From the IMG/VR virus record IMGVR_UViG_2671180637_000029: a DNA stretch of 18,156 bases, one strand, 5' to 3'. Every line of letters begins with the position of its first letter. The first letter of the stretch is position 1. Made by a program: the position numbers. Shown piece after piece: positions 1 through 3,000 of the stretch. The stretch comes from a virus. Taxonomy: Duplodnaviria; Heunggongvirae; Uroviricota; Caudoviricetes.

Positions 1-3000
1 ATGAATCCGTTTAACGCCATTACTTTTGCTGCATTGTGCGGGCCTCTGGCTTGTCCTGCTGCTATGGCGCAGGAGTTCATCATCCAGCCAGCCCCTGTGA
101 TTGCTAAACCTTTTGAGTACTCTCCTTCTGTTGAGGAATTCTCACGCAAAATGGAAGAGGGTAAGGAGATCTTGCAAAAGTTAACAATTGCAGCAGATGA
201 CTACTATATCTGTTTGATTGATCTTAATAGCCAAGATGCTCGCGAGTTTGTTTCCAAAAACGGGACAGATACGACAGAGGCATGCGAAATGTTCCTGCGT
301 GCTTTTGAAGAAGAAGTGAAGCGTACAATTGAATCGCCTCTGCCTGAATTTATCAGGTCAGAACTGAAGGTTTACTGGCGTCATATTGCTAAAGCTCGCT
401 CATCTGTCACTCGCCTTAACAATTACATAAAGAGCATATTTAAAGAAACTGTTACTTTTAGCGGGCGCGCGGATCTTGCTGGAATTGCAGCACTAGCTAG
501 TCACACATCAAATAAGCTAAAATCGATGCAATTTCACTAACCGATAGCGGACGACCATGCATCTAGAAGTCTCTATTAATCCAGAAACTAGAGCTGAATT
601 TTTTGATGAAGTTTTTCTCAAATTCCCGGAGCTAGAGTCTTCTATCATTGATGATTTCAAGAGATACAAAGCAACCGGTGAGCTTCCGCATTATTTCGGT
701 AGGGACGTTGCGTATACTCAGCCTTATGGTGCTTTTCGGGCTGGGTTGATGCATATCCATCTTTGTCTACCGCCAAACAAGTTTCCCGAGAAACTTCCAC
801 AACCGGATAGGGTCTGCAAGAAAGGTGATCCTGATAATGATGCTTGTCTTGTGTATGTCCAAGGTGAGCTTTATGAGAATAAATATTCACTCATTGCTAT
901 TATGTATCCCGATGCACATGAAAAAGCAAGAAAACATGATGTGATGAGCTATCTGGCGCGAATTGCCCAGAATTATAAAGATGAAAACTAACCCGCCGAA
1001 GCGGGTTTTTTGTGAGATTAGTTATTTATTTTCCTATTTGTTCTTACCCTCTCCCATTCAATTCTGCCTTCTTCACGCCGTTTATCTATATATTCAGCAA
1101 GATCCTGAATGTTGATGCAGCGCTTTGCTTTCTGTGATGTACCAACACGATAAGTCGGGATCGGCAACTGGCATGCATTTGCTTTCGCTTCTGCTGTGTT
1201 AGGGCTCATACCGAAATACTTTTGGCATACAGCTGACAGCTCAATGTTTGGGGTATTGAATTCAGCCATCAGTAAAAACAAGGTGTTCATAATTTTCTCC
1301 ATCAAAACCGGCTGCACCCGGGAAAATCATAATTCTGTGCTGGTGGCAGGAATTAATTTCTGCCAGATAGCGGAAACATATTTTGCCTGATGACGGGCAT
1401 CAGCCAGGGCGTTGTGCCGGTCGCCATCGAAAGGCATGTCCATTTTGGGGTCGAATCCGATGGAACGCCCAAGCGTAACGATCGTGCGTACATCGTGGTC
1501 ATTCCAGTACGCCCACGGGCAGATTTGTCCTGCTCGCTCGTAAGCTCCACGTAAAATTACGTTGTCGAAGGTGGCCCCGTTACCCCAGACTTTTAAATAT
1601 TTCGTATTGTCTGCGTGCCGGTTAATGAAATGGTTTAGTTCTGAGAGAGCATCGCTGATCGACAAAGTATCATCAATACAGATTGCAGCTCGCGCTTCAG
1701 GGCTTTGTTTCAACCACCACAGGATGGTATCGCCGTTAGGTGTAGCTCCTTGCTTCATAGCACTGTCTAGGCTGACAACCGCATAGAATTCTTGTCCGAT
1801 GTCTCCGGTTTCTGGAGTGAAGAACACCGCGCCAATGGAAACGATCGGTGCATCCTTATTTTTCCCCATCGTCTCAAGGTCGATCATTAAGTTGTTCATC
1901 ACTTCACCTCCTGCGGCGGTTCCGGTAGCGGCATCCAGTGAGTTGCTTGCTCAATACCATTACCCGGCTTAATCGTTGCATCTCCTCTCCGAAAGGTGCT
2001 TCCGGTATAGCGTGCGGAGCATATTAGCGGTTCAACCAGAGAGCTATCGAAATTCACCGAAATAAGCACGTTCTGGCCCTTTTCAGGCATTCGATCACTA
2101 CAGCTTATCCAACTATCCGGAGTTCCCGGAGAGTTGCCATTTACATCGAAGTTTGGCTCTGCGTCCTGAACCAAGAGGATGTAACCATTCTTGGCTGTAT
2201 CAAGTTCTAACGCCTCGGTGACGGTGCCGAAATAGCGATTACCTAAATCAGCATCACAAGTGCTTATATCAATGGAAACTTCCATGCCTTCGATTAATTC
2301 TGGCAAGTTGTAAGTTTGGCTTACAGGTTGGCTACCCTGAAGCATGGCGGCGCGGTGACACCAGATAATCCAGCCAAGCGCCATATCCCATGCCATGTAT
2401 TCTCTATCGCCATTTTTTGCCCTACGGCGATCTACAGATTCCCCGAAACGCTTCTCCATAAATAATTCATAGGCTGCTCGTTCATCCGATACTGCTGCCA
2501 GTGATGCCTGTGCAATTTTTAATGCGGTAAGCATGTTGTTTTGATCTTCATCGAGTCCGAACGGTATTTCATCCCGTGCTGACTCAATGCTGGTAATCGT
2601 GTTCTGTAACCATTCTTTGGTAAGAGTATTCATAACTATTTCACCTTAATCTCAACATTTCGCAGCTTTAGCTCTACTGGCAAGTCTGACTTTCCTGTTA
2701 ATGCTAATGCGAGATTTTCAGGAGTAATGAGAGCAGTTATTGTTTTCCCCATCGCCAGACGAATAATCATTCGTATCTCGCGATCGTCACATGCTCCCGG
2801 TCGAACAATTGATATTTGTCCGTTCATCTCACTCTCCTTTGATGCCAATGTTTACAGCCTGACAAGCCTCTTTGAGCACCCAGTCAACAGCGTCTTTCCA
2901 TGCTCCGGTTTCGACTGGCGGATTTTCACTCTTAACCTGTTCATAGAAGCGCACCGCTTTAATCAATCCTTCGGGTGTCAGTGGCACAGGCTGGGCCGTG

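Follow-up and report, generated by a model that had tools for sequence, protein, structure and literature searches.

The window analyzed here is an 18,156-nucleotide stretch of a Caudoviricetes virus (IMG/VR record IMGVR_UViG_2671180637_000029). At its left end, two closely spaced genes on the plus strand converge on an excisionase-like gene on the minus strand, and the features of this region are the following.

1..540, plus strand: gene for the partner protein, 179 aa, phrog_8416 (ORF; phrog_8416 E = 4e-86)
1..99, plus strand: conserved N-terminal block of the partner, MNPFNAITFAALCGPLACPAAMAQEFIIQPAPV, codons 1-33 (alignment of the partner family)
100..129, plus strand: predicted disordered and variable linker of the partner, about residues 34-43 (model and alignment)
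130..522, plus strand: predicted all-helical core of the partner, with helices at residues 44-74, 77-87, 90-110, 116-146 and 159-174
541..556, plus strand: intergenic spacer of 16 nt (sequence)
557..991, plus strand: gene for the toxin, 144 aa, YafO family, predicted RelE/HigB (BECR) fold (ORF and PF13957)
990..1014, plus strand: intrinsic terminator of the pair, a 7-bp stem with 5 GC pairs and a loop of 4, then TTTTGTG
1018..1317, minus strand: excisionase-like gene, PrtN family (PF11112, E = 4e-24; phrog_1300 'excisionase', E = 2.5e-40)

Position 1 of the window is the A of the ATG of the partner gene; the promoter, Shine-Dalgarno sequence and inverted repeat described below lie upstream of it and were identified in related loci. 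In E. coli strain CFSAN004176, the identical prophage L002 shows that the 179-aa ORF is whole: no other start codon separates its ATG from the preceding stop codon, and a GAGG Shine-Dalgarno sequence comes before the ATG. Complete genomes show the element to be a lambdoid prophage inserted beside a dusA fragment, with the pair as the first gene set inside attL. The excisionase-like gene is the first gene of the prophage early-left block, and beyond it are genes for a 3'-5' exonuclease and a DUF551 protein, so the original prediction was right that the pair is convergent to this block. The first 1,320 bases of the region occur with 100% identity in the phages PhiR40_1 and PhiR55_1 and were found in 48 of 5,426 complete E. 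coli genomes. The pair had also been described as AT-rich; its GC content (41-45%) is indeed below that of the rest of the window, but only mildly so, as values across the window run from 38 to 57%.

The pair has expression signals of its own. A predicted promoter (TTGACC-17-TAGACT) is located about 55 nt before the ATG, in a layout that is conserved in the loci L002 to L006, and the GAGGT Shine-Dalgarno sequence before the ATG is invariant across related loci. An inverted repeat of 5-6 bp is found at the predicted transcript start, at -42 to -48 from the ATG, in five loci, and its arms vary yet stay complementary (AATAGC/GCTATT, GATAAC/GTTATC and TAAGC/GCTTA, with ATAGC/GCTAT in Gilliamella); as a measure of chance, 13% of shuffled 90-mers hold an inverted repeat with arms of at least 6. 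This repeat may serve as an operator or form a 5' RNA hairpin. At the other end of the pair, the terminator hairpin AACCCGCCGAAGCGGGTT with its T-run (990-1007) overlaps the toxin stop codon, and because it scores on the minus strand too, it may also stop the convergent excisionase transcript. The hairpin stem, ACCCGC...GCGGGT, recurs once in the window at 15577-15596, and the recurrence is not expected by chance, as two copies compare with 0.01 expected. The second copy is downstream of a lipoprotein gene (15074-15499); thus, the motif ends the pair and recurs as first proposed, but it follows the lipoprotein gene and does not bracket it. The gene order of partner, 16-nt gap and toxin, with a promoter and Shine-Dalgarno sequence upstream and a terminator downstream, is typical of the layout of type II toxin-antitoxin modules.

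Judged from its profile matches and its structural model, the 144-aa protein is a true member of the YafO family with a predicted RelE fold. A Pfam HMM search matched it to YafO_toxin (PF13957) with E = 1.9e-21 and 76.5 bits against a cut-off of 25, over profile positions 1-100 of 101, which bears out its original assignment as a YafO-type protein. In its annotation, K-12 YafO is a ribosome-dependent mRNA interferase, and PF13957 is listed in a 2025 review as an mRNA-degrading family with the gene order antitoxin-toxin (PMC11980606). The 144-aa toxin scores 75.8 bits against the NCBIfam equivalog model for K-12 YafO (PRK09885), below the cut-off of 153, and is 36% identical to E. coli K-12 YafO over 117 residues, which together place it in a distinct subfamily rather than among the equivalogs. 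An AlphaFold2 model built from a 32-sequence alignment has a pLDDT of 95.3 and adopts the RelE/HigB fold at high confidence. Thirteen residues (D33, F34, P44, F47, G48, D50, H66, H68, L98, Y100, A114, H121 and M130) are invariant in K-12 YafO and the toxins of 17 diverse modules. A sequence search returned no solved structure of a relative of the toxin, and the toxin had no match among the defense models of PADLOC-DB v2.

The partner is a member of a previously undescribed and unannotated family of all-helical proteins of about 180 residues. The window protein has no family match in Pfam, NCBIfam or PADLOC, and since there is no Pfam match, no HTH or RHH model fits it. It belongs to phrog_8416, which is labeled 'unknown function' and which 30 of 32 diverse family members match. 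The same 32 members have no consistent match in Pfam, NCBIfam or PADLOC and no Pfam antitoxin domain; the matches to PADLOC-DB v2 are isolated and weak, with single members each matching unrelated models and a best value of E = 0.017 for the window protein. The view that the upstream gene is not YafN-like is upheld, as BLASTP finds no similarity to K-12 YafN (E = 1.7), the partner-family HMM scores YafN at 1.6 bits, and YafN has 97 residues compared with 179 for the partner. A profile built from the family found nothing significant among PDB sequences. A word-indexed search yielded 22 partner clusters, and when 1.84 billion representative proteins were searched exhaustively with a profile, only 23 matches emerged, nearly all of about 180 aa.

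The AlphaFold2 model of the partner (pLDDT 78.9) consists of an N-terminal helix at residues 6-24, predicted at low confidence, followed by a disordered linker and a five-helix core. The linker region has pLDDT values below 50 at residues 30-36 and is without secondary structure from 25 to 43, and its alignment columns are poorly conserved, with insertions and deletions. Family motifs in the core are LRxFE and AKARSxxTRLN, and most clades share a C-terminal FH. Fold searches with the model returned only generic helical bundles. With no recognizable DNA-binding domain in the partner, classical autoregulation by this protein is not evident.

The partner and toxin genes are strictly paired. In the redundant IMG/VR set the partner gene is directly upstream of the toxin gene in all 68 cases with enough upstream sequence, and each of 100 partner genes has a toxin gene directly downstream. 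The pairing extends to all 17 diverse pairs, which range over Enterobacterales, Gilliamella and Pseudomonas, and to all other loci examined. The gap between the genes is 3-20 nt in the 17 diverse pairs, in which the partner stop codon often falls within the Shine-Dalgarno sequence of the toxin (TGAGG/TAAGG), and in the IMG/VR loci it runs from -4 to 35 nt; most gaps are 3-16 nt. Either gene leads to the pair: the partner as query identified pairs in four genomes (Phytobacter, Enterobacter and two of Pantoea), and the toxin as query led to Klebsiella, Yersinia, Photorhabdus and Gilliamella, in which an upstream gene of 183-186 aa with no Pfam domain aligns with the partner. The most distant partner relatives from the HMM search of 1.84 billion proteins (P0084, P0080, P0087 and P0076) are also paired, and the upstream 'hypothetical proteins' in HK639, Pseudomonas R656 and D14L, and a Klebsiella phage-plasmid match the partner-family HMM with E = 2e-47 to 6e-10. 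In these loci the 179-aa gene therefore does not recur without a toxin partner, and what had been noted as an unrecognized partner is a new family that was never found without the toxin.

The pair occurs in at least seven genomic contexts, including att/xis, between the tail tube and tape measure genes, the baseplate, lysis genes and ant/arc, and one pair is outside a phage, at a chromosomal gntP-marC site, as a stand-alone two-gene island. Its presence in unrelated contexts indicates that the pair moves and is kept as a unit. As had been suspected from the window, it is a self-contained, typical prophage cargo insert, found in many different prophage positions. Variants with a shortened toxin gene were seen at two loci. 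One has both genes frameshifted on a noisy contig and is uninformative on decay; in the other, from Photorhabdus, the partner is apparently kept but the toxin gene is called short at its N-terminus, and this locus is likewise uninformative.

Do the two proteins interact? The pairwise identities of partners and toxins correlate (r = 0.76; Mantel test, 0 of 5000; 17 pairs, not corrected for phylogeny), although such co-divergence is expected from linkage alone. The partner evolves faster, with a mean pairwise identity of 0.26 compared with 0.49 for the toxin; antitoxins usually evolve faster than their toxins. More telling for an interaction is the net charge of the two proteins, which is anticorrelated (r = -0.64; permutation p = 0.004; 17 pairs, not corrected for phylogeny). 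The variance of the summed charge of partner and toxin is 12, compared with 32 expected if the two were independent, and basic partners are paired with acidic toxins and vice versa, within clades too. Charge compensation is what would be predicted for a complex within one compartment, and it suggests that the partner and toxin form a physical complex.

An odd feature of the partner is its N-terminus, where residues 1-33 form the most conserved stretch of the family alignment. The hydrophobic N-terminus noted originally is confirmed, as residues 1-24 are uncharged and hydrophobic, and they resemble a Sec signal peptide in having a hydrophobic core, a Pro at -5 and A-M-A before Q25. The n-region of the window protein has no K or R, whereas most relatives carry 1-3, and the -3/-1 positions are occupied by small residues (A-M-A, A-L-A, T-L-A, A-S-A). 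The signal-like layout persists in Photorhabdus (MNLSLRSCLAVVLFGGVLSVPSFSA), Gilliamella (MANHSVINSAILAALFAFSSQA) and Pseudomonas (MARTKVPFSKVAMLSLALSVSTSCA), even though their sequences in this region are unrelated. The maximum 19-residue hydropathy of the partner N-termini is mostly 1.0-1.7, and the hydrophobic stretch is weak in the clade of HK639, while the clade of the Klebsiella phage-plasmid lacks it. A motif, M-x-x-F-[ND]-A...G-x-L-x-Q...A-A, is common over large distances and is found in the HK639 clade as well. Conservation of this kind, with a shared motif, is atypical of signal peptides.

The N-terminal conservation is on the level of the protein, since synonymous differences in amino-acid-identical pairs are present in codons 1-33 (45%, compared with 58% elsewhere). 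These differences rule out a nucleotide-level cause such as an att site or an RNA element, and the dusA junction is moreover about 200 nt upstream. Met22 was rejected as the true start because codons 1-21 are under amino-acid constraint and the GAGGT Shine-Dalgarno sequence is invariant before Met1. The partner was also considered as a lipoprotein and rejected, as the sequence leading up to Cys13 (A-A-L-C) is, on reading, not that of a lipobox.

We favor, at a probability of roughly 55%, the explanation that the pair is a type II-like toxin-antitoxin module, mobile and carried by prophages, that joins an RNase of a YafO subfamily to a new helical family in place of YafN. The pair would then be a self-contained cargo operon of two genes, located near attL in a lambdoid prophage integrated at dusA. 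Because a promoter just before base 1 and a terminator both belong to the operon, the lysogen could express it without recourse to the phage program. The downstream gene is predicted, from its homology with K-12 YafO, to encode a RelE-fold endoribonuclease that halts translation by cutting mRNA. The upstream partner would be made first, from the same transcript, and would bind and neutralize this toxin. Should expression stop, for instance because the prophage is lost or an infecting phage shuts off the host, the cell would be arrested by the toxin thus set free, and this arrest may result in prophage addiction and/or abortive infection, which we regard as the likely role of the module. The signal-like N-terminus probably governs the location or turnover of the partner through membrane insertion or export, which is the least certain step of the proposed mechanism.

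The signal-like and highly conserved N-terminus complicates a simple reading of the partner as a cytoplasmic antitoxin. If the partner is cleaved and exported, the mature protein could not meet a cytoplasmic RNase, whereas the partner of the Klebsiella phage-plasmid, which has no hydrophobic N-terminus, could have its core domain only in the cytoplasm. A tentative and rather unlikely reading is that the partner is an export-coupled antitoxin that neutralizes the RNase in the cytoplasm while its N-terminus continually removes free partner by Sec export or membrane insertion, such that release of the toxin would be set by the balance between synthesis and export of the partner. Alternatively, within the same estimate, the N-terminus may tether the toxin complex to the inner membrane, where it could sense incoming phage DNA or membrane damage. 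We similarly view as improbable, if deserving of attention, that the partner is truly secreted, with a cleaved Sec signal peptide and a mature helical protein that acts in the periplasm or envelope, for instance as an envelope sensor or in the exclusion of superinfection. The YafO-type protein would in that case be controlled otherwise, and the genes would be co-inherited because they serve one pathway and not because one product sequesters the other. Almost every clade has a signal-peptide architecture, whether or not the sequence is kept, as secretion would predict, and the hydropathy values of mostly 1.0-1.7 are nearer to those of a signal peptide than of a membrane anchor; moreover, prophage cargo often encodes envelope proteins, and the window has a lipoprotein cargo gene. 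Secretion fits poorly, however, with an N-terminal block that exceeds the rest of the protein in conservation and has a long-range motif, with an n-region that lacks positive charge in the window protein, and with clades in which the hydrophobic stretch is weak (HK639) or absent (Klebsiella phage-plasmid). It also leaves the charge compensation unexplained, as the two proteins would sit in different compartments, and the strict one-to-one linkage with a gap of 3-20 nt is a hallmark of interacting pairs.

Two further explanations were considered. The RNase might depend on the partner as a cofactor, chaperone or activator instead of being inhibited by it, the partner being for example a specificity subunit or one that localizes the RNase by tethering it to the membrane, with toxicity held back by low expression or a trigger; we give this little credence. 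It is also quite unlikely, in our estimation, that the YafO-type protein is a tamed, non-lethal RNase that tunes host or phage expression, in which case the pair would be regulatory cargo rather than a toxin-antitoxin or defense module. The lack of any match to a defense model, the score of the toxin beneath the NCBIfam YafO equivalog cut-off (75.8 versus 153 bits) as a member of a distinct subfamily, and the Photorhabdus locus that apparently keeps the partner beside an N-terminally shortened toxin gene would all be in keeping with taming. On the other hand, the candidate catalytic and structural residues of K-12 YafO are retained without exception and the model has a RelE-like fold at high confidence, and the module is found outside phages as a stand-alone two-gene island, as toxin-antitoxin modules are.

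Under the favored reading of a toxin-antitoxin module, the pair is a compact candidate for prophage-encoded addiction or abortive infection, and the partner adds to the repertoire an antitoxin-like family that spans Enterobacterales, Gilliamella and Pseudomonas and has no recognizable DNA-binding domain. If the signal-like N-terminus is functional, it would couple control of the toxin to the membrane or to protein export, and toxin-antitoxin systems would gain a new principle. A full-text literature search found no paper on the partner family, on exported or signal-peptide-bearing antitoxins, or on NetFlax together with YafO. The same search found no backing for the label 'YafM antitoxin' in a GenBank record (PV340560); 'yafM' stands for the YoeB antitoxin in one paper, apparently as a misprint of yefM, and occurs also in a paper on REP-associated transposases.

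The closest known system is YafN-YafO of the E. coli K-12 dinB operon. The two systems share a toxin of PF13957 (36% identity, with H66, H68, Y100 and H121 in common) and the order of partner, short gap and toxin. They differ in the partner, which in the present module is unrelated to YafN, has 179 rather than 97 residues, is predicted to be all-helical, has no Phd/YefM-type domain and bears a signal-peptide-like N-terminus. The present toxin is moreover below the YafO equivalog cut-off, and the module is phage-borne with its own promoter, outside the SOS dinB operon. In other systems of the RelE/ParE superfamily (BECR fold), namely HigBA, RelBE, DinJ-YafQ and YefM-YoeB, the antitoxins are cytoplasmic and have an HTH, RHH or Phd domain, none of which was detected in the present partner.

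YafO toxins on Pseudomonas prophages and in tailocin clusters have been reported as lone toxins (PMC10449497, PMC4684702). These 'orphans' belong to the same subfamily as the present toxin (about 50% identity), and the 'hypothetical protein' encoded upstream in R656 and D14L belongs to the partner family (E = 1e-14 and 2e-18 with the family HMM), so the R656 and D14L toxins are parts of pairs and not orphans. This check covered R656 and D14L, the latter one of the published prophages; the record of D14C stops 6 nt past the toxin match, short of the upstream gene. The finding corrects the annotation of the prophage YafO loci in which the upstream gene was read, and would do so for others treated as lone toxins, tailocin clusters among them. 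The pair also shares features with prophage morons that encode exported or membrane proteins, such as superinfection-exclusion genes, including its own promoter and terminator, locations between tail genes or beside att, and a signal-like N-terminus. Morons, however, are single genes that act in the envelope, whereas here an exported-looking protein is strictly tied to a predicted cytoplasmic RNase.

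The partner, the proposed 179-aa antitoxin, begins at the first base of the window, and what precedes it can be read in the identical E. coli prophage of strain CFSAN004176 (L002):

L002 5694-5798: dusA junction region, an incomplete tRNA-dihydrouridine synthase gene that precedes the module by about 200 nt
L002 5919-5971: the module's own predicted promoter (TTGACC-17-TAGACT) and an inverted repeat, upstream of window base 1

The dusA gene is the integration site of the prophage. The ATG of the partner is the exact first base of many IMG/VR prophage contigs (L031-L037) as well as of the window, and these starts suggest an automated prophage boundary call that removes the module promoter. 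The 6-bp inverted repeat (AATAGC-taag-GCTATT) sits at the predicted transcript start in L002, and in L003, L005, L006 and the Gilliamella locus L015 its position and complementarity are kept while its sequence has changed. It may act as an operator or form a hairpin at the 5' end of the mRNA.

At its other end, the module has a terminator whose stem and tail recur in a second part of the window:

Window 14041-14793: cysteine-rich ORF of 250 aa, just upstream of the lipoprotein gene
Window 15074-15499: lipoprotein cargo gene (MKKVLIAAIGFCLVGC, lipobox LVGC), with a low GC content of about 38%
Window 15577-15596: terminator AACCCGCCACTGAGCGGGTT followed by TTTTGTG, downstream of the lipoprotein gene

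The stem and tail of this terminator are those of the terminator at 990-1007, after the YafO-type gene; two copies occur in the window versus 0.01 expected by chance, and the element may be a "cargo cassette" terminator common to both genes. The hairpin at 990-1007 overlaps the toxin stop codon, and its minus-strand reading scores as terminator-like too, so that it may end transcription from both sides: that of the cargo operon and that of the convergent excisionase/early-left block.

Related modules occupy other settings:

L010 1328-3438: partner-YafO pair with ParD/ParE genes in a Yersinia prophage, placed between the gene for the tail tube and that for the tape measure
L030 98-1098: Photorhabdus locus with an intact partner (186 aa) and a called toxin gene of only 115 aa
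L027 1374-2411: most divergent pair, on the Klebsiella phage-plasmid pJN2-26

In the Yersinia prophage, the partner-YafO pair comes immediately after a ParD-ParE pair and a further ParD-like gene that stands alone, and this tail operon interior looks like a toxin-antitoxin hotspot. The called Photorhabdus toxin gene begins 92 nt after the partner and may be a decaying toxin beside a retained partner. In the Klebsiella pair, the 205-aa partner has a basic, probably disordered N-terminus in place of the hydrophobic one, and the 136-aa toxin lacks the proline-rich loop PPxxFPxxxPQxDRxC present in the other clades. The absence of both from one pair hints that the partner N-terminus and the toxin loop may go together.

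The partner and its relatives carry various annotations:

L001 222-761: partner gene in PV340560.1, labeled "YafM antitoxin" by the depositors
L026 1950-2941: Pseudomonas phage R656 pair; the gene upstream, annotated "hypothetical", is a partner-family member (E=1e-14)
L028 1489-2441: Pseudomonas phage D14L pair; the gene upstream, annotated "hypothetical", is a partner-family member (E=2e-18)

A search for a literature basis for the "YafM antitoxin" label found none. In one paper "yafM" occupies the place of the YoeB antitoxin, apparently as a misprint for yefM, and the name also occurs in a paper on REP-associated transposases. Prophage YafO toxins have been treated in the literature as lone toxins (PMC10449497); in both Pseudomonas phages with a readable upstream gene, R656 and D14L, that gene is a member of the partner family (2/2).
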